Positions 35,591 to 47,570 of a DNA stretch of 64,000 bases are shown in pieces. The stretch is taken from the NCBI GenBank assembly GCA_041690595.1, contig JAWLHB010000036.1:1-64000 (forward strand). Direction: 5' to 3'. The position numbers and the translations under genes are program-made. The notes beneath the pieces are model-generated. The model saw nothing but the letters and a program-made list of their open reading frames with translations, was not told where the DNA came from and ran no database searches. Each line of letters begins with the position of its first letter. Position 1 is the stretch's first letter. The stretch comes from Lentisphaeria bacterium (GTDB lineage Bacteria > Verrucomicrobiota > Lentisphaeria > JABSQK01 > JAWLHB01).

Positions 35591-38131
35591 TTAGCCGGCT
35601 TCTTGTTCACGTAGAAGTTGCAGGGGGGGATGCCGGAGGGTCTGGCGGGTGTTGAGGAGGCCGACGATGATGGTGAGAGCGCTGACGGCGAACCAGAGAC
35701 CGGCCAGGGGCCAGGCGGCGATGAGCCAGGTGGCCTCGAACCAGAAGCGGGCGAGGATCCAACTGGCGAAGAGGGCGAGGATGGTGCCGCTTAGTGCCGC
35801 AAAGGCGCCAAGCATGGCAAACTCGCTGACGGCGATGAGCTTGATCTGGCGGCGGGAGGCGCCGATGGTCCGCAGGAGGACGCTCTCGCGGAGGCGTTGA
35901 TAACGACTGGTGGCGACGGCGCCGATGAGGACAACCACGCCGGCACCAACGCTGAACATGGACATGAAGCGGATCGCGAAGCTGAGCTTGCCGAAGATGC
36001 CGTCGAGGGTGCTGATGAGCGAGGCGGCATCGATGAAGGAGACGGTCGGGAAGGCATCGAGGAGTTGGCGCTGCAGGTTGGCCTTGGCCTCGGGAGAGGC
36101 GATGCGGGTGGCCAGCAGGTGAATGTGTGGGGCCTCTTCCAGGATGCCGGTGGGGAAGATGACGAAGAAGTTGGGGCGCATCTGGTACCAGTCGACCCGG
36201 CGGATGCTGGCGACGTAGGTGGTGATGGGGAGGCCCTGCACGTCCCAGACGATTTCGTCGCCCATGGCAAGCTGGAGATCCTTGGCGATGCCTTCCTCGA
36301 CGGAGATGGGCACGGGCTCTTCGAAGAGATCCATGCTTGGGACGAATTCGCCCTGAAGGATGTCTTCGCCGGGGGAGAGGTGGTCGCGATAGGAGGAGCG
36401 GTACTCGCGGTTGAGCGCCCAGCTTTCGATGAGGGGATTCTCTTCTTCACGGATCTCGCGCAGGGTGCGGCCGGCAATGGAGCTGAGCCGCATGGTGACA
36501 ATGGGGGAGGACTGGATAACGGGGAGGTCGTGTGTGGCGAGGAGATCCTGTACGCCGGGGAGTTCGTCGGGCTGAATGTCGAAGAGGAGGGTATTGGGTG
36601 CGTGGGCGTCGTGGGACCAGGCGAGTTGGGCGAGCAACAGGTGCTGCACGGCAAAGAGGAGGGCGAAGAGGAAGGCGCCGAGCCCCAGGCACATCATGAG
36701 GACGGGGGTTTGGTTGTTGGGGCGATAGAGGTTGTTGAGCCCCTGGCGAAGGACGAAAGGGAGCCGCGGGGAGATGAAGTGGCGCACCAGCCAGATCAGG
36801 AGGGCGGCGAAGGCAGCCAGAGCGGCGAGGAGAAGGAGGATGGCGCCGGCAAAGATGGCGCCGTCCCGCCAACTGCTCATGGTCAAGGCGATGAGCAGGT
36901 AGAGGCCGAGGGCGGTGGCGCCCCAGACGGCGAGCCGCAGGGGATCGCGCCAGACGGCCGGCAGGGGTTCGATGGTAGCCCGCAGGGCGGTCAGGGGTGA
37001 AATGCGGCGTATGCTCAGGAGTGGAAGGAGGGCAAGGAGGAGGGTGATGCCCAGGCCGACGGTGAGCCCCATGGCAATGGCAGGCCAAGACCAGCTCACC
37101 ACGAGATCATGGGGTATCAGGTCGGTGAGCATGGTGGGTAACCCGTGCTGCACGAGGATGCCGCCGGCGGTGCCGATGAGTGAGCCGAGGAGGCCGATGG
37201 CCAGCATCTGCAGCAGGTAGATGCCCATGGTCTGGCCGCGCGAAGCGCCCAGACAACGCAGGATGGCCACGGTGCCGAGCTTCTGCCGCATGTAGACGTG
37301 CACCGCACTGCCGACGCCAATACCGCCGAGAAGGACGGCCGCGATGGCGAAGATGTCGAGGAAGCGGTAGACGTTGCTGAGGGTGCGTCCGAGGCGTTCC
37401 TGTCGCGAGGCAATGGTTTCAACGCGCAGTCCATGGCGGGCGGCCATTTCCTCGAGGGAGGCGGCTATGGGTGCGATCTGCTCGGGATCGTGTACGCGGA
37501 GGAGGGCGCGATAGAAGAGCCGGCTTCCCGGCTGGATGAGGCCGGTGGCGTCGAGGCGGTCGTTGGGGATGAAGACTCTGGGGGAGAGCTGCGTCCAGAG
37601 GGAGACTTCGCCGGGGATCTTCACCAGTCTGCCGGCGATGGTGAAGGTGGAATGGCCGATGGTGATGGTATCGCCGGGGGCAGCGCCGGCCTGAATCATG
37701 AGGGCTTCGTCGACGAGGGCAGAGTTGCCGGAATGGAAGGTGGTGGCGGCTTCGGGAGGATCGGTGACGATCTGGCCGTAGAAGGGGAATTCGGGGCTGA
37801 TGGCGCGGAGTCGCACGAGATGGGCGCTGTCGCTGTTGGTGAAGCGGAGCATGGTGGAGAGGTTGCGCTGCCAGGCGATGTCGGCGGGGGCGGCGGCGAG
37901 AAAGTCGCGGACGGGCCTGGCGAGTGGGCGCCTGGAATTGAGGGCGAGATCGGCGCCGAGGACTTCGCCGGCCTGTTTGTCCAGAGCGGCCCGGATATTG
38001 TCCTGAAAGGAGCGTATGGCCACGAGTCCGGCGACGCCGATGCTCATGGCGGCGACGAAGAGGATAAGGCGTCGGCGACCGCGGCGGCTGTCGCGCCAGG
38101 CCATACTGAGCAACCATGCAAGATTCTTCAT
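35591..38131 (-). CDS. ABC transporter permease, YbbP/FtsX-like
   Basis: AWRDSR start, AILRCLGAS and LLRTIGAS FtsX motifs, and VDW..MRPNFFVIF. Confidence 0.9.
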   Translation of the reverse strand: MKNLAWLLSMAWRDSRRGRRRLILFVAAMSIGVAGLVAIRSFQDNIRAALDKQAGEVLGADLALNSRRPLARPVRDFLAAAPADIAWQRNLSTMLRFTNSDSAHLVRLRAISPEFPFYGQIVTDPPEAATTFHSGNSALVDEALMIQAGAAPGDTITIGHSTFTIAGRLVKIPGEVSLWTQLSPRVFIPNDRLDATGLIQPGSRLFYRALLRVHDPEQIAPIAASLEEMAARHGLRVETIASRQERLGRTLSNVYRFLDIFAIAAVLLGGIGVGSAVHVYMRQKLGTVAILRCLGASRGQTMGIYLLQMLAIGLLGSLIGTAGGILVQHGLPTMLTDLIPHDLVVSWSWPAIAMGLTVGLGITLLLALLPLLSIRRISPLTALRATIEPLPAVWRDPLRLAVWGATALGLYLLIALTMSSWRDGAIFAGAILLLLAALAAFAALLIWLVRHFISPRLPFVLRQGLNNLYRPNNQTPVLMMCLGLGAFLFALLFAVQHLLLAQLAWSHDAHAPNTLLFDIQPDELPGVQDLLATHDLPVIQSSPIVTMRLSSIAGRTLREIREEENPLIESWALNREYRSSYRDHLSPGEDILQGEFVPSMDLFEEPVPISVEEGIAKDLQLAMGDEIVWDVQGLPITTYVASIRRVDWYQMRPNFFVIFPTGILEEAPHIHLLATRIASPEAKANLQRQLLDAFPTVSFIDAASLISTLDGIFGKLSFAIRFMSMFSVGAGVVVLIGAVATSRYQRLRESVLLRTIGASRRQIKLIAVSEFAMLGAFAALSGTILALFASWILARFWFEATWLIAAWPLAGLWFAVSALTIIVGLLNTRQTLRHPPLQLLREQEAG

Positions 38132-38223
38132 CGGGCTCCCCGCAGGCTTGCGCCGAGGCGCGACCTGCTGTAAACTCTCATGTTGTCGTAATCAGGCTAT
38201 GCATTATATAAAAGGTGTTTGCG

Positions 38224-38544
38224 ATGGATTTCAATGAGCTGGCCGAACGAACTCGGCAGGGCCTCGGACGTAACCAGGTGGTGATCGGCAAGGACCTGTT
38301 CACGCGCTACGCCCGAAGCAACCGCCTGGGTATGGTCTGGGTGACGGAAGATCTTGCGCCGCACGCGATAGCCAAGATGCGCGAAGCGTGCGCGAAGATG
38401 GATATACATCTGATCATCGGTGGGGACTCCGCGGAGATGGGCGCGATCACCGGCCGAGAGACGACGAAGGTATACTTGTTCAAGAAGTCGTTCTCGGGGC
38501 TGTCGCATATCTTGACGCAGTTCGAGGATCAGCGGCGGAAGTAG
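38224..38544 (+). CDS. L7Ae/L30e-like RNA-binding protein
   Basis: 106 aa with VVIG, VWVTEDL and SAEMGAITGR patterns. Confidence 0.6.
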   Translation: MDFNELAERTRQGLGRNQVVIGKDLFTRYARSNRLGMVWVTEDLAPHAIAKMREACAKMDIHLIIGGDSAEMGAITGRETTKVYLFKKSFSGLSHILTQFEDQRRK

Positions 38545-38576
38545 GCGGGGACGCGGCGAGGTATGCAGGAGGATTA

Positions 38577-38652
38577 ACCACAAAGAACACAAAGATCGCA
38601 AAGAACGAGCGGGGGAGAGGCGGAGACGCGACGGCCGTTGGGGCAACGGCCG
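38577..38652. repeat. 9-bp CAAAG repeat x3 plus hairpin
   Basis: ACCACAAAG AACACAAAG ATCGCAAAG, then CGGCCGTTG-GGG-CAACGGCCG (38632-38652). Confidence 0.7.
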
Positions 38653-38693
38653 GAACGAGACCGATGGGGGGAAAAGGTGGTGTGTGGTGGCGT

Positions 38694-38831
38694 GACGTTG
38701 GGAAGGGGCAATGCGGAACGCCGGTGCCACTCAGGCGAGTGGCGTGCCCAGGGGGCGCGGGAAGATAGACGGGACGTTGGGGAGGGGCAATGCGGAACGC
38801 CGGTGCCACTCAGGCGAGTGGCGTGCCCAGG
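38694..38831. repeat. 59-bp direct repeat x2 with internal hairpin
   Basis: Copies at 38694-38752 and 38773-38831 with one mismatch. Each has GCCACTC-AGGC-GAGTGGC. Confidence 0.9.
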
Positions 38832-38923
38832 ATCAGGTCGCCGGTGTGGGAAAAAAGAAGAGCGGCGAGGCATCTGGTGGGATACCTCGCCGCTGGAAGA
38901 ATCGCGAGTGACTACTGATAAGC

Positions 38924-39970
38924 CTACAGAGCTTCACCCTGATGTTGCTCGTCCTGGCGATTCTTCTCTTGATCTTTCTGTTGCGCTTCGGGCTTCATGT
39001 CGCGCTTGTGGGGGGCGTTGTTTTTCATTTCGCCTTCGCGCTTCTCACGGGCCTCTTTCTTGTCGACGGACTGCTGGCCATCCTCATCGACATAGCCATG
39101 CACACGCCGCTCGCTGCCGAAGCTCTCTTCGAGCCTGCGGGTATAGTTGTCGTCCTCCAGATTGGGAGGAGCACCGCGCTGGTAAGCGAACTGGCGGATG
39201 TTGTCGAGGGTGGCATCAATCCTGACGACCTTGGGGTCGCTGGTGACATCGAGCACGCCCCATGGGATGGTGACGAGGCGGTTGTCTTCGAGGGTGAGGA
39301 CGCCGTAGACGACATCACCGCGGTCGGTGTCGACGAGGATCTGATTGACTTCGCCGGCATCTTCACGGGCGGTCGTCTGGACCTCCAGGCCGACGAGTTC
39401 AGAGAGTCGCCGATTTGCCCTGCCCTGGCGGCGGGCTTCTGCCTGTATCTGCTCTTCTTCGCGGTCGGGTTCGATATTGAAGAACTCGAGCGTTTTCTGC
39501 CACCAGCTTTCGTCCTTCATTTCCGGCCACTTCTCATTGTCGAAGCGGGGCGCCTGGGCCATGTGTTCACCGGAAGCATCAAGGACGAGGACGTTGTTGG
39601 GTCGATCCTGGAACTTCATCTTCATGGCTTGCCATGGCACGGCGGCGAGGTCGCCTGCGTCCGTCGGGTCAGCCAATTCGATGACGCCGTACTCGACCTT
39701 GTCCTGAGTGGCGTTCAAGACGATTTCCTTCAGCTTGCCAAGCTCCTTGCCTGCGTTGTCGCGGACTTCCATTCCTGTCAGCTCGCTGGCGGGATGAAGC
39801 TTGGGGGCTTTGCGTTGCTGAACCTGCTGTTGTCCGGGCTTCTGCTGTTCGGCCTTCTGCTGAGCTTGAGGTTTTTGGGGCTCGGCTTCCTGGGCGGTGG
39901 AGATGGAGGTGGCGCCGAAGGTCAGGGCCACCGCGACCGTTGCCGTTCTGGTGAGTTCTGCTAAAGTCAT
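38924..39970 (-). CDS. Secreted tandem PRC-barrel protein
   Basis: Signal peptide, ASELTGMEVRDNAGKELGKL..VPW and a second LSELVGLEV..IPW. Confidence 0.88.
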   Translation of the reverse strand: MTLAELTRTATVAVALTFGATSISTAQEAEPQKPQAQQKAEQQKPGQQQVQQRKAPKLHPASELTGMEVRDNAGKELGKLKEIVLNATQDKVEYGVIELADPTDAGDLAAVPWQAMKMKFQDRPNNVLVLDASGEHMAQAPRFDNEKWPEMKDESWWQKTLEFFNIEPDREEEQIQAEARRQGRANRRLSELVGLEVQTTAREDAGEVNQILVDTDRGDVVYGVLTLEDNRLVTIPWGVLDVTSDPKVVRIDATLDNIRQFAYQRGAPPNLEDDNYTRRLEESFGSERRVHGYVDEDGQQSVDKKEAREKREGEMKNNAPHKRDMKPEAQQKDQEKNRQDEQHQGEAL

Positions 39971-40074
39971 AATTGACTCCTGTTGTTGTTGGTAGGGTAC
40001 GGGTTACCGATGCATTGGGGGCCCGGTCGGCGATGCGGGAGACGCATCGGGGGCGTTGGTTATGGTTGGGGTGA

Positions 40075-40091
40075 AGCATACCGAATGCCAA
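40075..40091 (-). promoter_or_regulatory. Candidate sigma54 -24/-12 promoter
   Basis: Minus strand TTGGCATTCGGTATGCT (GG-N10-GC), ~105 bp upstream of the PRC-barrel gene. Confidence 0.5.
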
Positions 40092-40349
40092 TGCGGTACT
40101 TCATGCCTGGCGATGGGGTTCCACCCTCGCGACCGGGCAAAGGGATCGTGCAAGGCATGAGACAGTGCCGCTTTTCTTTACATACCCGGGGAAATTCACA
40201 ATTCCTTTGCGCAGCTGCTATTTGCGCGCCTCGAACAGCTGCTACATTAGGCAGAACTCGAATCCTTGGAACCAGCGATTGTCCCGCGTTGTCCTATTTC
40301 CGCACGTCGATAAACCCACTTGTTCTAACAGCTGGAGCTTCAGATAAGT

Positions 40350-41039
40350 ATGGCACTCTTCGATCCGATCTATTGGCTGATCCTGTCGCCGGGCATTCTG
40401 CTGGCGCTCTTTGCTTCAATCAAGGTGAAGTCGACGTTCGCGAAGTATTCGCGCATCGGCTCCAAGCACGGCTATACGGGGGCTGAGGCGGCGCGCGACA
40501 TGCTGCGGCGGGAAGGCATCACGAACGTGACTATTGAACCGGTGGCGGGAATGCTGAGCGATCATTACGATCCCCGCACGCGGACGCTGCGCCTGTCGGA
40601 ACAGGTGTACGGGAGCCGCTCGCTGTCGGCGATCGGGGTAGCATGCCACGAGGCGGGCCACGCCATTCAGCATGCGCAATCGTACAGCATGCTGATGTTG
40701 CGGAGCACGCTGGTACCGGTCACGAGCCTGTGCAGTTCGTTGTGGATCTGGGTGCTGCTCATCGGCTCCTTCATCGGCCCGCAGTTTGCGATGATCGGCA
40801 TCCTGATGCTGGGCGTGGCGGTGCTCTTTTCGATCGTCACGCTGCCGGTGGAGTGGGATGCGAGCCAGCGGGCGAAGACGGCGATGGTCCGCAACGGGAT
40901 TGTGACGCAGCAGGAAGCGTCGCACGCGGCGAGCGTGCTGAATGCGGCTTTCCTGACGTATCTGGCGTCGGCGATCACGGCGATCCTGACGTTGCTCTAC
41001 TGGCTGATCCGGCTTGGCCTGATCGGCGGGCGCGACTGA
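40350..41039 (+). CDS. Neutral zinc metallopeptidase (YugP-like)
   Basis: LSDHYDP, HEAGHAIQ and TLPVEWDAS motifs. Confidence 0.92.
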   Translation: MALFDPIYWLILSPGILLALFASIKVKSTFAKYSRIGSKHGYTGAEAARDMLRREGITNVTIEPVAGMLSDHYDPRTRTLRLSEQVYGSRSLSAIGVACHEAGHAIQHAQSYSMLMLRSTLVPVTSLCSSLWIWVLLIGSFIGPQFAMIGILMLGVAVLFSIVTLPVEWDASQRAKTAMVRNGIVTQQEASHAASVLNAAFLTYLASAITAILTLLYWLIRLGLIGGRD

Positions 41040-41767
41040 TGCGCGATCCGCAACCGCCGGCCGCGGCCAAGACCGATGGTGAAGCGTCCAGGCCGCACTA
41101 CGCGGATCATCGTCAGCGCCTGCGGCAGCGGTTCGTGAAGAGCGGCGCGGAGGGTCTGCACGACTATGAGCTTCTGGAGTTGCTGGTGGCGTATGCGATT
41201 CCGCGGCGGGATGTGAAGCCGCTGGCGAAGTCGCTGCTGGAGCGCTTCGGCACGGTGGCGGGCGTTCTGGATGCGTCGCCCCGGGAGTTGGCTGGGGTGA
41301 ACGGCATGGGCGAGTATTCGGCCACGCTGATGCAGCTGACGAAGGCGCTTTGCGCCGCCTATCTGGGGGATTCGCTTCGCGCCCGTCAGGCGCTTTCATC
41401 GGCGACGGAGGCGGTGGACTTCGCGCGCATCCACTTGGCGGGGCGGCCGCATGAGGCGGTGATGGCGCTGCATCTCGATGCGATGAACCGGCTGATCGAT
41501 CACCGGATCGTGACGGAGGGTACCATCGACAGCGTGGTCGCCTATCCGCGCCGCATTCTGGAACAGGCGATGGCGGCGAACGCGGCGGGGCTCATCCTGG
41601 TGCACAACCACCCCAGTGGCAACTGCAATCCCTCGCCGGATGACGACCGTCTGACCAAGAGCCTTTTCGAAGCGGCGAAGGCGCTGGACATTATCCTCCT
41701 CGACCACCTGATCGTGGGTCGCGACGGCTACTACAGCTTCGCGGAACACCGGCGGCTGCCGGAGTAG
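41039..41767 (+). CDS. radC: RadC family JAB-domain protein
   Basis: HRQRLR, ELLELL, HNHPSG..PSPDD and LLDHLIV motifs. TGATG coupling to the peptidase gene. Confidence 0.95.
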   Translation: MRDPQPPAAAKTDGEASRPHYADHRQRLRQRFVKSGAEGLHDYELLELLVAYAIPRRDVKPLAKSLLERFGTVAGVLDASPRELAGVNGMGEYSATLMQLTKALCAAYLGDSLRARQALSSATEAVDFARIHLAGRPHEAVMALHLDAMNRLIDHRIVTEGTIDSVVAYPRRILEQAMAANAAGLILVHNHPSGNCNPSPDDDRLTKSLFEAAKALDIILLDHLIVGRDGYYSFAEHRRLPE

Positions 41768-41794
41768 ACGCGGCCTGACATTGGGGGAAGGAAG

Positions 41795-41843
41795 CGGGGC
41801 GCTGCCCCGAACCCCGCTGGGGAGGCGCACCTCCCCAGACCCC
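41795..41843. repeat. Double-hairpin REP-like element
   Basis: CGGGGC-GCT-GCCCCG and CTGGGGAGG-CGCA-CCTCCCCAG. Confidence 0.6.
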
Positions 41844-41852
41844 TCATTGCTT

Positions 41853-41893
41853 CTTGCCGGAATCTGGAGATCGGATCTCCAGATTCCGGCAAG
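41853..41893. repeat. Perfect 20-bp inverted repeat with 1-nt centre
   Basis: CTTGCCGGAATCTGGAGATC-G-GATCTCCAGATTCCGGCAAG. Confidence 0.9.
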
Positions 41894-42053
41894 GTATGGG
41901 GCGGGAAGGGGACGCGGGTAGGACGGACGGGTATGGACGGTATGGCTCGGGGTAAGGTTTTTTTGTTGCTTGGACTTGACTTTGGAGTTATATGCAGTAT
42001 GTTTCCTGATCTTTTACATGGAGTTATTCAAGGCGTAAAGGGAGGGTTTGGAG

Positions 42054-43379
42054 ATGAGTGGACTGAGTGAGCGGATGCGGCGGTTTGCGGGGGAGTATGT
42101 GAAGGATTTCTGCGCGGCGAAGGCGGCGCTGCGGGCGGGATACTCGGAGTCGTTTGCGAAGGCGAGGGCCTTCGAGTTGCTGCAGGATGGTCGGGTGCGG
42201 CTGCTGGTGCGGGAGTTGGTGGCGGGGGAGAAGGCGGCGCTGGAGTCGACGGAGGGGGTGCGGGTTCCGTCGATGATGGAGCTTGCGGGGGTGCTGGGAA
42301 CACTGGCGACAACGTCGCTGGCTGATGTGATGCTGCCCAATGGCGAGGTGGATCGGTCGTCGCCGGCGGTGCGTGGGGTGCGCTGGGTGAAGGATGGTGA
42401 TGGGGGGCTGATGCAGGAGCCGGTGATGTATGACCGGCTGCGGGCGGCGAAGGATTATGTGAAGGTGATGGAGAGCGTGCAGATGGTGGAGGGGAATGGA
42501 CTGAGCATGCAGATGGATGCGGAGAGCTGGCTGATTCATGTACTGGGGTTCGGGTGGGAGGAGAAGGCGCGGGTGGTGGAGCGCGTGGTGACACAGACGC
42601 CGCAGGGGGAATCGGTGCGGGTGGTGGTGGAGATGGAGCATGGGACCATGACGGTGTCGAGCAGTCCGCAGACGCAGGGGTATCGGTTTGTGGCGAAGGA
42701 GGTGGAGGAGGCGGAGACACGGGGACGCGGAGACGCGGCGTGGACCGAGGATTCGACCGAGCATTCAACCGAGCACTCGACCGAGCATTCAACCGAGCAC
42801 TCGACCGAGGATTCAACCGAGGATTCAACCGAGGATTCAACCGAGGATTCAACCGAGGATTCAACCGAGGATTCAACCGAGGATTCAACCGAGGATTCGA
42901 CCGAGGATTCAACCGAGGATTCAACCGAGGATTCAACCGAGGATTCGACCGAGGATTCGACCGAGGATTCGACCGAGCATTCAACCGAGGATTCGACCGA
43001 GGATTCGACCGAGCATTCAACCGAGGATTCGACCGAGGATTCGACCGAGGATTCAACCGAGGATTCGACCGAGGATTCGACCGAGCATTCAACCGAGGAT
43101 TCGACCGAGGATTCGACCGAGGATTCAACCGAGGATTCGACCGAGCATTCGAGCTCAGACGCCGGGGAGGGCAATGGCAGGGGCGTTGGGGACAACGGTG
43201 CAAGTCGCGGTCCGGAGAACCTCTCTCGCATTGGGGGGCCTGCAGGGCAGCAACGGCCGGTCGGTGACACCCACGTTGAACGCGGTCGCCGTCCGGAAAG
43301 CACCCCGAAGAGGAATAGAGCGCCCGCCGGGGAGTTTTATGCTTCGCGCAGGAGAGAGGAGATGCTGTTCTGGAAATGA
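42054..43379 (+). CDS. Terminase small subunit-like protein with acidic repeat tail
   Basis: LSERMRRFAGEYVKDFCAAKAALRAGYS..A.ELL resembles the Terminase_2 HTH. GGAGG RBS and upstream TTGACT-16-TATGTT. Confidence 0.7.
   Translation: MSGLSERMRRFAGEYVKDFCAAKAALRAGYSESFAKARAFELLQDGRVRLLVRELVAGEKAALESTEGVRVPSMMELAGVLGTLATTSLADVMLPNGEVDRSSPAVRGVRWVKDGDGGLMQEPVMYDRLRAAKDYVKVMESVQMVEGNGLSMQMDAESWLIHVLGFGWEEKARVVERVVTQTPQGESVRVVVEMEHGTMTVSSSPQTQGYRFVAKEVEEAETRGRGDAAWTEDSTEHSTEHSTEHSTEHSTEDSTEDSTEDSTEDSTEDSTEDSTEDSTEDSTEDSTEDSTEDSTEDSTEDSTEDSTEHSTEDSTEDSTEHSTEDSTEDSTEDSTEDSTEDSTEHSTEDSTEDSTEDSTEDSTEHSSSDAGEGNGRGVGDNGASRGPENLSRIGGPAGQQRPVGDTHVERGRRPESTPKRNRAPAGEFYASRRREEMLFWK
42744..43151 (+). repeat. 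12-bp VNTR, 34 units, encoding TEDS/TEHS
   Basis: ACCGAG(G/C)A(T/C)TC(A/G), 408 bp, in frame with the TerS-like ORF. Confidence 0.95.
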
Positions 43380-43430
43380 GACGAAGAGTGATGTAGGTTT
43401 GCAGAGTCCATAAATTTTAAGGAGGATACC

Positions 43431-45797
43431 ATGTTGCGTCTGATGCTTACACTTTGTGTTCTGGCTTTGTTTGCTTTCTGCACGGGTGCTCAGGTTGTGC
43501 TTGTGGAGAATGGGGAGGCGCGTTGTGCGATCCATGTATCGGCGGAGATCATGGCGGAGAACATCGCGTTGGCTTCTACGGTGCCCGCTATCGAGCGGCA
43601 GGCGGAGACGCATCGGCAGCGGTTGCGAGAGTCGGTGCGGGATCTGGCGGTGTATCTGGAGCGCATGTCGGGGGCGCCGATCGCGATCATCGAGGGGCCT
43701 CCGGAGGCCGGCAGCGCACACCTGCCGCTGCTCATCGGCGAGCTGGCGGAAGCGCGCTTCGGAGCGACGGGGCAGCGTTCGTTTTTCAAGCAGGGCTGGC
43801 GGCTGGTGGTGAGCCCGCGGGGTCTGGGGTTCATGGGGGAGAGCGATGAGTCGGCGAGTTATGCGATTTATGAGCTTCTCGATCGGCTGGACTGCCGCTG
43901 GTTCATTCCCGGGGAGATGGGTGAAGTCGTTCCTGAGATGGGGACGGTATCGGTGGCGGAAGTGGACGTATCGGCTCTGCCCAGTACGCCGAACCGGAGG
44001 ATCTGGTACGCAAGTGCTGACTATATGCGGCGCAATCGTCTGGGTGGCTTTGTGGTATCGGCGGGTCACGCTCTGGACACGTACATCGCGAAGGATAAGC
44101 TGGCGGCGAATCCGGAGCTGAATGCGGAGCAGAGCGGGAAGCGCAACATCGACAGCGGCTTTCTGTGCTGGGGGAATCCGGCGACCGCCGAGGCCGTGGC
44201 GGAGAGTATCATCGCGAGGCTGGACAAGCAGTATGTCCCCTCCGTATCGCTTTCCCCGAAGGACGGGGTAGCCTTCTGCGAGTGCGAGGTGTACTGCAAG
44301 CCGCTGGATGCGGGCGATTACGATCCGACGATGGACACGATCTCCATCACGGACCGCTACATCGTGTTCTGCAACCGGATTGTGGAGCGGGTGGTGGCGA
44401 AATATCCAGACGTGCAGTTTGGCTTTCTGGCGTATGTGCAGTACACGCGGCCGCCGGTTCGTGAGATCCCCCACCCTAACCTTGTCCCGGAGATCGCGCC
44501 GATCACCTACTGTCGCGCACATGCCATGACGGCGGACAACTGCCCGTCGCGGGCGATTCTCAAGCCGATCGTGGAAGGGTGGCGCAAGGTGACGAAGCGG
44601 TTCGCCTACTACAACTACATGTTCCATCTGGCGGAGGTCGCAGTGCCCTACCCGATGATCCGGCAGATGAGCGATGAGCTGCCGGTCATTTACGGCGGGC
44701 CGGCCGAAGTCTTCTGGCAACCGGAGACAATGACGAATTTCGAGAGCGTGCTGCCGGGGATGTGGCTCACCATCCGGACGGCCTGGAATAACAGTTTGAA
44801 GGCGGAGGAGGTGCTCGATGACTTTTTCACGCGGTTCCATGGGGCCGCTGGTGAACCGATGCGGCGCTACTGGCAGGTTATCGATGATGCGTGGAACGAT
44901 GTACCTGAGCATGCGGGCTGCAGTTGGGGATACGCGGCGCGCTTCACGCCGGAGGTGATGCAGGCGGCCCGGGCGGCGATGGACGAGGCGATTGCCGCGG
45001 CGGCCACCCCGATGGAGTATCGCCGGGTAAGGTTGTTCGACGACTCGCTGCGACAGTTCGAACTCTTCATGAAGATGCGTTGGGATCTGGCCGGCGGCAC
45101 TGTCGGGATGCTGCACGTGCAGGCGCTCTCGTGGATGGGTACGCAGATCGGTCTTGGGGATCGGTATGCGGAGAATTATGCTTTTGGGAAGGTTGGCTGG
45201 AGTTCCGTCGGGAACATCGGGGCGGGTTACTTTGCGGCCTTCAATCAGGCTACGTACGAGGACATCGGGGAACGCATCGGGCGGGGCGGCAAGTTTGTGC
45301 TGGTCAATCGCACACCGGTACGGGAATGGCGCTACCAGATGATCCAGCTTCCCCAGAAGGAGGCAGCTACGGGGGTTGCGACGGGTGAGGCTAATGGCTG
45401 GCATGCCGCCGATTTTGCCGACGCGGAGTGGCCGACGACGGATGTCGCGGTGGATACGTGGTCGACGCTGGGGCAGCTCGGCAAGTATGGGACCATGTGG
45501 TATCGCGCCACGGTCAAGGTGCCCGCCATACCGGACGGCAAGCGGGTCTACCTCTGGATGGCGGCCACGGACGGGAGCGTGAAGCTCTTTGTGAACGGGC
45601 AGCACGTTTCCTATGTCCAAGCTGACGGTACGGCGGTGGATGCGGTCACCGGCTATGCGAAGCCTTTCTCCTTCGACGTGACGGAGTTGCTGAAGGCGGG
45701 CGACAATCAGCTGAGTATTGCCGGGAGCCGTCTCTTCATCAACGAGCTTGGCACTGGCGGCCTGCTGGGCCCGATCTATCTCTACCGCGACCGGTGA
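43431..45797 (+). CDS. Secreted DUF4838-like protein with C-terminal GH2-type sugar-binding domain
   Basis: Signal peptide, AIYELL..LDCRWF.PG, FCECEVYC, FLAY..YTRPP and C-terminal WYR..VNG..GDN. Confidence 0.75.
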   Translation: MLRLMLTLCVLALFAFCTGAQVVLVENGEARCAIHVSAEIMAENIALASTVPAIERQAETHRQRLRESVRDLAVYLERMSGAPIAIIEGPPEAGSAHLPLLIGELAEARFGATGQRSFFKQGWRLVVSPRGLGFMGESDESASYAIYELLDRLDCRWFIPGEMGEVVPEMGTVSVAEVDVSALPSTPNRRIWYASADYMRRNRLGGFVVSAGHALDTYIAKDKLAANPELNAEQSGKRNIDSGFLCWGNPATAEAVAESIIARLDKQYVPSVSLSPKDGVAFCECEVYCKPLDAGDYDPTMDTISITDRYIVFCNRIVERVVAKYPDVQFGFLAYVQYTRPPVREIPHPNLVPEIAPITYCRAHAMTADNCPSRAILKPIVEGWRKVTKRFAYYNYMFHLAEVAVPYPMIRQMSDELPVIYGGPAEVFWQPETMTNFESVLPGMWLTIRTAWNNSLKAEEVLDDFFTRFHGAAGEPMRRYWQVIDDAWNDVPEHAGCSWGYAARFTPEVMQAARAAMDEAIAAAATPMEYRRVRLFDDSLRQFELFMKMRWDLAGGTVGMLHVQALSWMGTQIGLGDRYAENYAFGKVGWSSVGNIGAGYFAAFNQATYEDIGERIGRGGKFVLVNRTPVREWRYQMIQLPQKEAATGVATGEANGWHAADFADAEWPTTDVAVDTWSTLGQLGKYGTMWYRATVKVPAIPDGKRVYLWMAATDGSVKLFVNGQHVSYVQADGTAVDAVTGYAKPFSFDVTELLKAGDNQLSIAGSRLFINELGTGGLLGPIYLYRDR

Positions 45798-45915
45798 GCC
45801 ATGTCGAGCCTGCCGAGATTGGGCCTTGTGGTAGTGCGCGCTGATCCTTGATTTCGTACAGGTTTCGCGTACTTTGCCACAGAGCTTCCTCACCCGTTAC
45901 ATTGGAAGGAGAGTT

Positions 45916-47016
45916 ATGAACGGCGCCATCGACCGCATTCAGGTTCAGGGTTTCAAGTCCATCCGCGAGGCGGACATCGGCTTGCGCGGCCTCAACGTGC
46001 TCATCGGCCCCAATGGCGTTGGCAAGTCGAACTTCATTGGCTTGTTCAAGCTGATCAACACCATCATCGAGCGCCGGTTGCAGGTATATGTGGGAACCTC
46101 TGGAGGAGCGGGTGGGCTGTTGCACTTCGGCAGGAAGAGCACGCCAAGCATGCGAATCGATCTTACGTTCTCGAACGCCGTCAACGGGTATCATTGTCAA
46201 TTGACTGGCACGGATGAAGATTCGTTGATCTTTGGAGAGGAATCGACGTGGTTTCGCGACAAGGAGAAGGATGGCCGGCCCTATTCGTCAGATCTGGGGG
46301 GAGGGCATAAGGAAACGCGACTGGTGGATGCGAATCGGATCCCTGGGCAGGAGGTTGCGAACCCTATAGTAGCCGCCATGCAAAGCTGGCGCATCTACCA
46401 TTTTCATGACACCAGCCCGGAAGCAAAGATGAAACAGGCATGCGACGTACATGACAACCGGATCTTGAAAGGGGACGCTTCCAATCTTGCCGCCATGCTT
46501 TACCTGCTCCGCCAGCAAAGCCCGGCCCACTACCGGAACATCGTGGATGCCGTCCGAATGGTCGCGCCGTTTGTGGAAGATCTGGTTCTGGAACCGCTGG
46601 CGCTGAATCAGCAGATGATCCGGCTGGAGTGGAAGGAACGGGGAAATGATCACGTCTTCGGTCCGGGCGCGCTTTCGGATGGCACTCTGCGGTTCATCTG
46701 CCTGGCGACCCTACTCCTGCAGCCGCGTCTGCCCAGCACCATCCTCCTCGACGAACCCGAACTGGGGCTGCATCCGTATGCAATTACCATTCTGGCGGAG
46801 TTGCTGCGCGGGGCCGCGACCAAGACTCAGGTGATCGCGTCCACCCAGTCCGTGAGCCTGGTGAATCAGTTTGAACCCGCGGACGTGCTCATTGTGGAGC
46901 GGGAAGCCGGGCAAAGTGTTTTCAAGCGTCTGGAGCAGGGTGCGATGGATTCATGGTTGGAAGATTACGGCCTCGGAGAGCTGTGGGAGAAGAACCTGCT
47001 GGGAGGTCGTCCGTGA
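45916..47016 (+). CDS. ABC-type ATPase (AAA_21/AAA_15-like)
   Basis: GFKSI, GPNGVGKSN, LSDGTLR, LLDEPELGLHP and STQS motifs. Confidence 0.9.
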   Translation: MNGAIDRIQVQGFKSIREADIGLRGLNVLIGPNGVGKSNFIGLFKLINTIIERRLQVYVGTSGGAGGLLHFGRKSTPSMRIDLTFSNAVNGYHCQLTGTDEDSLIFGEESTWFRDKEKDGRPYSSDLGGGHKETRLVDANRIPGQEVANPIVAAMQSWRIYHFHDTSPEAKMKQACDVHDNRILKGDASNLAAMLYLLRQQSPAHYRNIVDAVRMVAPFVEDLVLEPLALNQQMIRLEWKERGNDHVFGPGALSDGTLRFICLATLLLQPRLPSTILLDEPELGLHPYAITILAELLRGAATKTQVIASTQSVSLVNQFEPADVLIVEREAGQSVFKRLEQGAMDSWLEDYGLGELWEKNLLGGRP

Positions 47017-47570
47017 GTTTCCGCACCACCAAGCGGGTCAATTCGGGGGGCAAATTCAAGGGTGGGGTTCCGTCGTATGGCAAAGTGAGGGGCGAGGTGG
47101 TTCGCCTGCTTGGAGACTCGAGCGCCGTGATGGTGACAACCATGCTGGACTATTACGGCTTACCGCCCACTTTTCCTGGTCGGGCCGCGCCTATCGGCGC
47201 CACCTGCGAGGAAAGAGTCTCCTTTGTGGAAGAGAGGTGGACGGCAGAGATCGGGGATCGACGGTTTCGTGCTCATCTGTCGCTGCATGAGTTTGAGGCT
47301 CTGTTGTTTTCGGACCCTGCTGCTATTGCTGCTGGTTTCGCCAATCCGGAGCTTGCCCAAGAGCTGACATCGATTCGCGCTTCATTTCGGACTCCCGAGG
47401 AGATCAATGACCGGCCAGAAAGCGCTCCATCGGCGCGCCTGAGAGCCCTGTATCCGCGATACAGTAAGCCATTCTTCGGCACACTGATCGCCGGCAGAAT
47501 CGGATTGGAGACCATGATCGCTCAATGCCCACACTTCGCGCGCTGGGTCGATTTTCTCAAGTCCCTATGA
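47013..47570 (+). pseudogene. DUF4276-family protein, apparently N-terminally deleted
   Basis: KGG, TTMLDYYGLP, HEFEALLF, PEEIND and CPHFARW motifs. GTGA coupling. The leading VEG strand is missing. Confidence 0.6.

Follow-up and report, generated by a model that had tools for sequence, protein, structure and literature searches.

A small-terminase-like gene with an acidic repeat tail and its paralogues among promoter-led, G-rich repeat islands of a Lentisphaeria genome

The gene at 42054–43379

The DNA considered here, referred to as the window, comprises the first 64,000 nucleotides (nt) of a contig (JAWLHB010000036.1, C36 below) from an uncultured Lentisphaeria bacterium (GCA_041690595.1, genome G000, an assembly of 8.1 Mb in 99 contigs that is 97% complete). 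At 42054–43379 it carries an open reading frame (ORF) whose product joins an N-terminal region homologous to phage small terminase subunits (TerS) to a long acidic tail of four-residue repeats. This TerS-like gene, its paralogues, and the DNA repeats found in their tails are our subject. An alternative in-frame TTG lies at 42048, and the ATG at 42054 is the start common to all paralogues in their alignment. A ribosome-binding site (RBS) and a promoter-like motif belonging to the gene itself had been proposed in the initial annotation of the window, and both were located (Table 1). The −35 element TTGACT (41976–41981) and the −10 element TATGTT (41998–42003) are separated by a spacer of 16 nt, an arrangement for which the promoter scan found 1 site against a mean of 0.2 in shuffles, and the conserved core of the promoter cassette, CTTGACTTTGGAGTTAT, occupies 41975–41991. 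No terminator-like site was found between the TerS-like gene and the next gene at 43431.

Homology to small terminases is clear at the level of sequence profiles. The Pfam family Terminase_2 (PF03592) matches amino acids (aa) 5–143 with E = 8.5e-11 and 43.1 bits against a gathering cut-off of 26.1, covering profile positions 2–129 of 141. This match supports the TerS-like helix-turn-helix (HTH) N-terminus that had been proposed from the letters alone. The PHROG 51 profile, labelled "terminase small subunit," matches the first 55 residues (E = 1.3e-10), and 7 copies in the genome, including the one in the window, match about 126–131 of the 141 PF03592 positions, all above the cut-off. An hmmsearch of the PDB with a profile derived from the paralogues retrieved 4zc3 (E = 1.4e-4), 2cmp (1.8e-4), and 3zqp (6e-4), all of them structures of the SF6 phage small terminase G1P, either as its DNA-binding domain or at full length.

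The structural comparison rests on an AlphaFold2 model of aa 1–232 made from 7 sequences, with a mean predicted local distance difference test score (pLDDT) of 60.9. In Foldseek, the HTH superposes on 4zc3 with a TM-score (TM) of 0.86 and a root-mean-square deviation (rmsd) of 1.4 over 56 columns, and on 2cmp with a TM of 0.84; taken together, the G1P DNA-binding domains gave TM 0.84–0.86 and rmsd 1.4–2.3 Å over 55–56 columns at 38% identity. The top match was the full-length SF6 small terminase, 3zqq (E = 2.2e-4, probability 1.00, 157 columns), with a superposition that is poor (TM 0.23–0.38) on a model of this pLDDT. The window gene is a true small-terminase homologue with an HTH fold. The part of the protein that had been called an unknown middle domain is partly TerS, because the Terminase_2 match extends to aa 143. 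About half of it falls within the family match, and the remainder (aa 144–230), which alignments show to be conserved among the 6 full-length copies, is specific to this family.

The tail is as striking in composition as in regularity. Tandem Repeats Finder reports a period of 12 bp in 34.2 copies at 42743–43152, and the 136-residue stretch of in-frame TEDS and TEHS tetrapeptides described initially is present as stated (Table 1), with the proviso that in a near-perfect array of 410 bp within a 99-contig assembly the true copy number may differ. The 136 residues include 60 Asp and Glu, 68 Ser and Thr, and no Lys or Arg, for a net charge of −60. The tail unit, ACCGAGGATTCR, is a variant of a repeat dispersed through the genome, GACCGAGGTTTT (E2 in Table 1), and because the unit in the window, GACCGAGGATTC, differs from E2 at two positions, we read the 34-copy array as a local expansion of the dispersed repeat. 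A Trp-containing motif at the C-terminus was also considered as a conserved feature. It occurs in all 4 complete full-length copies, but the 3′ ends cannot be aligned at the DNA level, and for that reason the shared ends are taken as chance in G-rich DNA. A PADLOC match to "Specificity_I" was likewise set aside as a low-complexity match inside the repeat, far below cut-off.

Table 1. Features at and around the TerS-like gene in the window, dispersed repeat modules of the genome, and classes of paralogues.
Feature	Position or location	Strand	Description
REP-like element	41790..41893	+	lies 3′ of radC and 5′ of the promoter; contains a perfect palindrome of 33 nt (41857-41889)
Promoter cassette (P)	41953..42003	+	from the paralogue upstream alignment, promoter scan, and nhmmer profile match starting at 41953
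RBS GGGAGGG	42040..42046	+	7 nt 5′ of the ATG; kept in the paralogue alignment
TerS-like ORF	42054..43379	+	ATG 42054, stop 43377-43379, 441 aa
HTH DNA-binding domain	42054..42233	+	aa 1-60; helices 6-18, 21-27, 32-43, 46-67; AlphaFold2 pLDDT about 70-79
Terminase_2 match	42066..42482	+	aa 5-143; HTH and predicted oligomerisation region
Family-specific region	42483..42743	+	aa 144-230; helix 156-166, three predicted strands 173-203; pLDDT 39-65
Tail units	42744..43151	+	aa 231-366 (136 residues); 34 in-frame 12-bp units, 26 TEDS and 8 TEHS
C-terminal 75 aa	43152..43376	+	net charge +4; reads through a degenerate E3 copy, match at 43206
E1			hairpin GCCACTCAGGCGAGTGGCGTGCCCAGG; about 200-220 exact 12-mers, 257 matches at ≤3 mismatches
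E2			GACCGAGGTTTT; 195 exact, 328 at ≤1 mismatch; second commonest 12-mer of the genome
E3			GTCGCGGTTCGGAGAACC; about 113 exact, 189 with mismatches
E4			TTAACCACAAAGAACGCAAAGA; 94 matches at ≤3 mismatches
Full-length class (n = 6)	C36 (window), C6, C49, C25, C7, C29		over aa 1-216, about 70% identical to the window copy
HTH + linker class (n = 5)	C22, C34, C14, C8, C12:196314		aa 1-63, followed by a short linker that is conserved
HTH-only class (n = 4)	C5, C2, C39, C46		aa 1-47, still the whole three-helix HTH
Divergent copy (n = 1)	C12:1908		37% identity, full Terminase_2 match, 12-bp-unit tail STDV x7

At the RNA level, Rfam families matched neither 38000–44000 of the window at E ≤ 1 nor, at gathering score, any of 11 paralogue loci (125 kb), and the TEDS array folded as RNA no better than shuffles (z = −0.18). 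A csrA gene is present in the genome, which is context for the idea that GGA-rich arrays could serve as a CsrA sponge. Four metagenome runs yielded only short contigs of low depth, among them two of 151 nt from run X2 that are identical to 42425–42712 and, from run X1, diverged pieces of the promoter and N-terminus.

The genes on either side are not those of a packaging module. A RadC-like JAB-domain gene (41036–41767, + strand) lies directly 5′ of the repetitive extragenic palindromic (REP)-like element. On the 3′ side, the gene is followed not by a large terminase (TerL) gene but by one for a DUF4838 protein and then by a HEC-01 pair. Searches of the window contig gave no match to the TerL families PF03237, PF03354, and PF04466 or to the capsid family PF05065 (portal and integrase families were not searched for), in agreement with the earlier remark that the window lacks TerL and capsid genes. 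The HEC-01 pair itself (45874–47570, + strand), 2.5 kb 3′ of the TerS-like gene, consists of an AAA_21 ATPase of 380 aa and a DUF4276 protein of 205 aa, which match a candidate defence system in PADLOC (HEC-01A, E = 7.7e-147; HEC-01B, E = 9e-58).

Sixteen paralogues and a wider class of repeat islands

The gene had been called an orphan, which is accurate in that it has no packaging neighbours and inaccurate in that it is far from alone, being 1 of 16 dispersed loci of the same genome that encode the same N-terminus. The start codon, the RBS, and the promoter cassette are common to all 16, the cassette consisting of a core, CTTGACTTTTGAGTTAT, followed by an extended −10. The copies fall into four classes by length and divergence (Table 1), and each has a different repeat-rich tail that contributes 40–330 extra repeat-derived residues. 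Their settings all differ and are all chromosomal, among carbohydrate-active enzyme (CAZyme), housekeeping, or defence genes; the neighbours include glycoside-hydrolase-like and DUF1559 proteins, a chemotaxis fusion protein, TatC, and a type I restriction subunit. Among 73 neighbouring ORFs scanned around the 16 copies, with genes called by a simple longest-ORF rule, no phage structural gene was found. The locus on C8 (38901–41731) has an additional feature, in that a 147-aa ORF and a 466-aa reverse transcriptase (an RVT_1 match whose best PADLOC match is the generic "RT" model, E = 2e-63) stand between a 103-aa TerS-like ORF and a repeat island at 41189–41717. These two genes look like an insertion into the locus.

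Phage genes that could be functional partners of the family are scarce. The genome search for TerL recommended at the outset detected a single gene, on C2 (166944–168446, 500 aa, Terminase_6N), and a single HK97-type capsid gene was found genome-wide, on contig C74 (17 kb). No family member adjoins either of the two. Packaging-module adjacency to TerL is absent at all 16 copies, and a head-tail cluster of the gene transfer agent (GTA) type was not found either, the TerL and capsid genes lying apart, each without structural neighbours (portal families were not searched for). The window protein has the sequence and fold of Terminase_2, but not the adjacency to TerL that marks a functional phage TerS. 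In the region around the TerL gene (C2:163900–175947), neither TerS nor structural genes accompany TerL. The adjoining genes encode a 918-aa protein that belongs to no known family, a repressor of the LexA/S24-like kind, and an OLD-type ATPase with TOPRIM that forms a Gabija-like pair with a UvrD helicase. The contig with the capsid gene (C74:1–17175) also encodes two integrase-like proteins, a primase/helicase, and a DNA-binding protein; no terminase was detected on it, and it may be a phage-satellite-like island.

The tails of the paralogues are mosaics of short DNA modules that rank as the commonest words of the genome (E1–E4, Table 1), and the same modules occur far beyond the family. There are 102 islands of at least 3 elements, within which the elements share one orientation with a purity of 97%. 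The promoter cassette occurs 46 times genome-wide at ≤3 mismatches, and at 44 of the 46 the next 600 nt are G-rich (G 27–49%) and strongly strand-asymmetric, with 16–40 GGA against 0–8 TCC. At least 41 islands contain a cassette, which is the 5′-most element in 31 of them. A DNA profile spanning −115 to +141 of the gene matches in full at the 16 TerS-like loci, and 15 more loci match only its promoter and leader. The TerS-like loci are a subset of a larger class of promoter-led, G-rich repeat islands. With genes called crudely as ORFs, the gene 3′ of a cassette-led island is co-oriented with it in 32 of 38 scorable cases.

The cassette and E2 set the genome apart from the relatives compared. 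At ≤1 mismatch the cassette is found 34 times in this genome and not at all in 30 relatives, and a 15-mer of E2 occurs 141 times here and 0–2 times, the control level, in the same 30. Genes for Y1 transposases of the IS200/RAYT-like kind (RAYT, REP-associated tyrosine transposase) adjoin E1 arrays at C26:764–1896 and C11:186817–188579 (C11:187754), an arrangement expected of a REP/RAYT pair, and are possible mobilisers. The assembly breaks at these repeats. Representative islands lie at C5:113699–115394, C6:25112–26002, and C13:24033–24907 and, in the window, at 41953–43240 and 38574–38860. The last of these (+ strand) lies just 3′ of an L7Ae-like gene (38215–38544). Its elements are a single E4 unit, a GGCCGTTGGGGCAACGGCC hairpin, and a pair of E1 hairpins with a spacing of 79 bp, and it ends in a hairpin at about 38870–38900. 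The REP-like element located upstream of the window gene is of a type that is translated, as "AAPDPAGEAHLPRPLDTSCRVPEIG," inside the tails of five paralogues.

Selection, translation of the tails, and outside relatives

Ratios of nonsynonymous to synonymous substitution rates (dN/dS) show that the full-length genes are under purifying selection. Compared pairwise, the six copies of this class never reach a dN/dS of 1 (0.09–0.53 in 15 pairs), and within the class HTH codons 1–47 average 0.08. Against its full-length paralogues, the HTH of the window copy has dN/dS of 0.11–0.17, so in this check, which the initial annotation had called for, the gene does not look like a decaying relic. The full-length genes appear to be maintained and the truncated ones relaxed, because the HTH ratio is 0.08 in the former and 0.36–0.65 within and between the truncated classes.

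The repeat DNA inside the genes looks more like coding sequence than that of the other islands. Across the 16 tails (8,619 nt), the ORF frame traverses 150 repeat elements, and stops occur 52 and 69 times in the two remaining sense frames. Same-strand elements continue within 1 kb past the stop codon at only 3 of 16 loci (2 at C7, 2 at C46, and 13 at C2, the last after an assembly N gap). The period is divisible by 3 in 22 of the 24 tandem arrays within the ORFs, against 53 of 106 arrays in the other G-rich islands made of the same modules (Fisher p = 1.5e-4). In the 15 other paralogues, the core ACCGA[GT]G occurs 91 times, 81 of them in the frame that gives Thr-Glu/Asp, which is the majority frame in 14 of the 15. 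Islands without TerS-like genes show no sign of coding: over 35.7 kb, stops number 522 in sense and 518 in antisense. Judged by these frame statistics, the tails appear to be translated at the level of the family.

Neither two protein collections nor 300 genomes of the phylum yielded a close homologue of the family. Word-indexed searches of 5.8 billion clusters found only own-genome paralogues, three in each of two length classes. An exhaustive HMMER search of 1.84 billion representatives returned 214 proteins at E ≤ 1e-3, of which the 6 at E ≤ 1e-10 are all own paralogues, and the next best match (E = 2e-9) covers the HTH alone. Matches in 1 of 60 relatives and in 1 of 300 other genomes of the phylum trace to the same single ORF of 153 aa in G022. 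In IMG/VR, 48 loci share ≤35% identity where the match passes the HTH region (at best 33% over aa 3–127), with identities of up to 59% only over short HTH stretches; contigs in GTDB added 3 distant loci and JGI metagenomes 1. In the data searched, the family thus appears lineage-specific.

The nearest outside relatives are phage-type TerS. In the 38 outside loci examined, the TerS ORFs are 118–344 aa long, and of the 33 in which the next ORF is at least 150 aa, 20 have a next ORF that matches a TerL Pfam family. No repeat tails were found in the last 40 aa of these TerS ORFs.

Candidate roles and comparison with known systems

We consider the most probable reading, at roughly 0.45, to be that the window gene belongs to a domesticated, lineage-specific family of DNA-binding proteins that would be kept by the host, not as part of a packaging motor, and that carries a fast-evolving acidic tail. 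The gene is likely host-kept rather than viral because it is one of 16 scattered copies, none of them beside packaging genes. A phage terS may have been captured behind the promoter cassette of a repeat island and may then have spread and diversified within the lineage. The full-length proteins would oligomerise, probably as a ring, as SF6 G1P does, and would bind DNA through the HTH. The 136-residue tail could act as a disordered extension whose length is changeable by slippage and which modulates the binding of DNA or of a partner. The most economical DNA target would be the family's own G-rich repeat arrays (GACCGAGGWTTY) or the shared promoter cassette. The roles put forward initially, namely a packaging decoy, a regulator whose tail would mimic DNA or be phosphorylated, and a dispersed GTA-like part, are further candidates.

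Several observations weigh against a host-kept, domesticated family. The structural model is weak overall and poorest at aa 143–170 and 207–232. About 30 loci have the cassette and repeats without a TerS-like gene, which a selfish repeat element would explain no less well than a host function. Of the six full-length copies, that in the window has diverged furthest, and its dN/dS of 0.59–0.73 over aa 60–216 indicates either relaxed constraint or a changed function in that region. By the ratios of the truncated classes given above, which point to relaxed constraint, part of the family appears to be decaying. A second frame of the window copy's tail is also stop-free, and the open frame of that tail alone is for this reason weak evidence. 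Finally, the assembly is fragmented: for 9 of the 16 copies, a contig ends no more than 2 kb from the start, 3 ORFs run off their contigs, and 2 hold N gaps.

Many of these points would also be expected if the unit of proliferation were a selfish element composed of the cassette, an optional TerS-like gene, and a G-rich array, spreading by a REP/RAYT-type mechanism or by recombination between arrays, with the TerS-like gene as cargo or helper and the gene-less copies as deletion derivatives. This explanation, which is compatible with a domesticated family, strikes us as unlikely, yet it is the strongest of the alternatives. The 44 of 46 cassettes that lead into strand-asymmetric, G-rich repeats, the 102 islands with their near-uniform orientation, the restriction of the cassette and E2 to this genome (not above control level in 30 relatives), the Y1/RAYT-like genes beside E1 arrays, and the tendency of the repeats to break the assembly all fit it, as does what could be a deletion series running from full-length genes through the HTH + linker and 47-aa HTH classes, with the relaxed constraint of the truncated copies, to the promoter alone. 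On the other hand, neither a transposase nor terminal inverted repeats nor target duplications could be identified at the copies, and synonymous divergence (dS) of 0.12–0.46 between the full-length copies implies no recent burst. The HTH dN/dS of 0.08 and the keeping of frame in the tails point to a protein that matters, and the islands without TerS-like genes, with their nearly equal stop counts on the two strands, lack a coding signature.

Interference with phage packaging is another conceivable role, in which TerS-like proteins would titrate or mis-assemble the terminase or the pac DNA of an invading phage, and the diversity of tails would record an arms race. The C-terminus of TerS is the part that binds TerL in studied phages, each paralogue has a different tail, and defence genes lie near some copies (HEC-01 in the window, the HsdR type I restriction subunit on C29, and the reverse transcriptase on C8). 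Most copies, though, sit beside CAZyme or housekeeping genes, no PADLOC model matches the family apart from the low-complexity artefact, no phage of the host is known, and the tails differ through shared DNA repeat modules and not through point substitutions. We regard this role as improbable.

Equally improbable in our estimate is that the gene is non-functional and decaying, left over from the terS of an old prophage, with a microsatellite that has expanded in its 3′ end, an idea raised initially in the form of a relic into which a variable-number tandem repeat had expanded. Its account of the tail DNA stands, in that the unit is indeed a dispersed repeat, while its account of the gene as a relic does not agree with the constraint on the HTH (0.11–0.17). 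On this view the long ORF would persist only because G-rich DNA has few stop codons, and both the open second frame of the tail and the ratio of 0.59–0.73 over aa 60–216 on the path to the window copy speak for it. Against these stand the intact promoter, RBS, and ATG, the absence of any frameshift in 441 codons, and the frame-keeping statistics of the family as a whole.

Two further proposals would return the proteins to DNA packaging, and both are very unlikely. In the first, TerS-like rings would recognise the roughly 100 promoter-led islands as dispersed pac-like sites and mark DNA for a host TerL or for that of an invading phage, driving gene transfer or aborting phage packaging, with tails written in frame by the very repeats that the rings bind. 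The second and least likely, in which rings bound to the arrays as pac-like sites would recruit the lone TerL or that of a helper phage for GTA-like or lateral-transduction-like initiation of packaging, draws on the pac sites of pac phages, which lie in or beside terS and are made of phased repeats, on the array present in cis in each full-length gene, and on the single TerL and HK97 capsid genes of the genome, but these two lie on different contigs, each among non-structural genes, no portal or tail genes were identified (portal families not having been searched for), a 12-bp period does not keep phase with the helical turn of DNA, and 10 of the 16 copies have no oligomerisation region.

Small terminases are known as single-copy genes of phages, satellites, or GTAs that lie beside the large terminase. 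With SF6 G1P (from an SPP1-like phage; 3ZQQ, 2CMP, 4ZC3), the window protein shares the Terminase_2 match, the superposition of the HTH, and helices where G1P has its oligomerisation core; unlike G1P, it is multicopy, lies outside any prophage, has a common cassette and a repeat tail, and none of the 16 copies has TerL 3′ of it. The TerS of GTAs and satellites (the RcGTA small terminase; the TerS of Staphylococcus aureus pathogenicity islands, SaPI, and of phage-inducible chromosomal islands, PICI) are also single-copy and belong to a structural cluster or to an integrase-bearing island. The present family resembles them as a cell- or island-encoded TerS homologue that could act with a TerL encoded elsewhere, and differs in that its copies stand alone in 16 unrelated places, with TerL and capsid on other contigs. 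In the portions of the literature open to our full-text search, no description of a multicopy chromosomal TerS family or of a repeat-tailed TerS was found. The present genome has a 16-member chromosomal TerS-like family with one common cassette, whose C-terminal halves are assembled in frame from repeat modules of intergenic type. If the proteins are made, this would be a clear case of a domesticated phage DNA-recognition module and of dispersed repeats recruited into coding sequence across a whole family.

The islands themselves invite comparison with REP/REPIN-RAYT systems and with mosaic intergenic repeats such as the bacterial interspersed mosaic elements (BIMEs) of Escherichia coli and the BOX elements of pneumococci. 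Like these, they are built of short hairpin-forming modules present in hundreds of copies, form clusters of one orientation, and have Y1 genes beside some arrays. Unlike them, many clusters are led by a sigma-70-type cassette, and at 16 loci the modules are read in frame as the C-terminal part of a protein. They would represent a previously undescribed class of promoter-led, strand-asymmetric, G-rich islands in an uncultured bacterium of the Planctomycetes-Verrucomicrobia-Chlamydiae (PVC) group. The tail also recalls the Ser-Asp regions of the staphylococcal Clf and Sdr proteins, in that a short DNA unit repeated in frame gives, in both, a long tandem repeat that is acidic and rich in Ser and Thr. 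The window protein, however, lacks both a signal peptide and a wall anchor and has a cytoplasmic DNA-binding fold at its N-terminus. An identity with ClfA/Sdr, suggested by NCBIfam matches confined to the repeat, was rejected, and the likeness is taken as compositional and not as homology because these matches score 17–22 bits against cut-offs of 650–2500.

Unusual architectures also occur among distant TerS-like proteins in public collections (P0008, P0009, P0011, P0013, P0014, P0017, P0019, P0021, and P0026). In some, TerS-like HTH modules are arranged in tandem, two or three to a protein, and one is fused to an N-terminus that we take to be IS630-like. P0017, a protein of 304 aa with 37% identity over aa 5–143, has a duplicated acidic stretch at its C-terminus.

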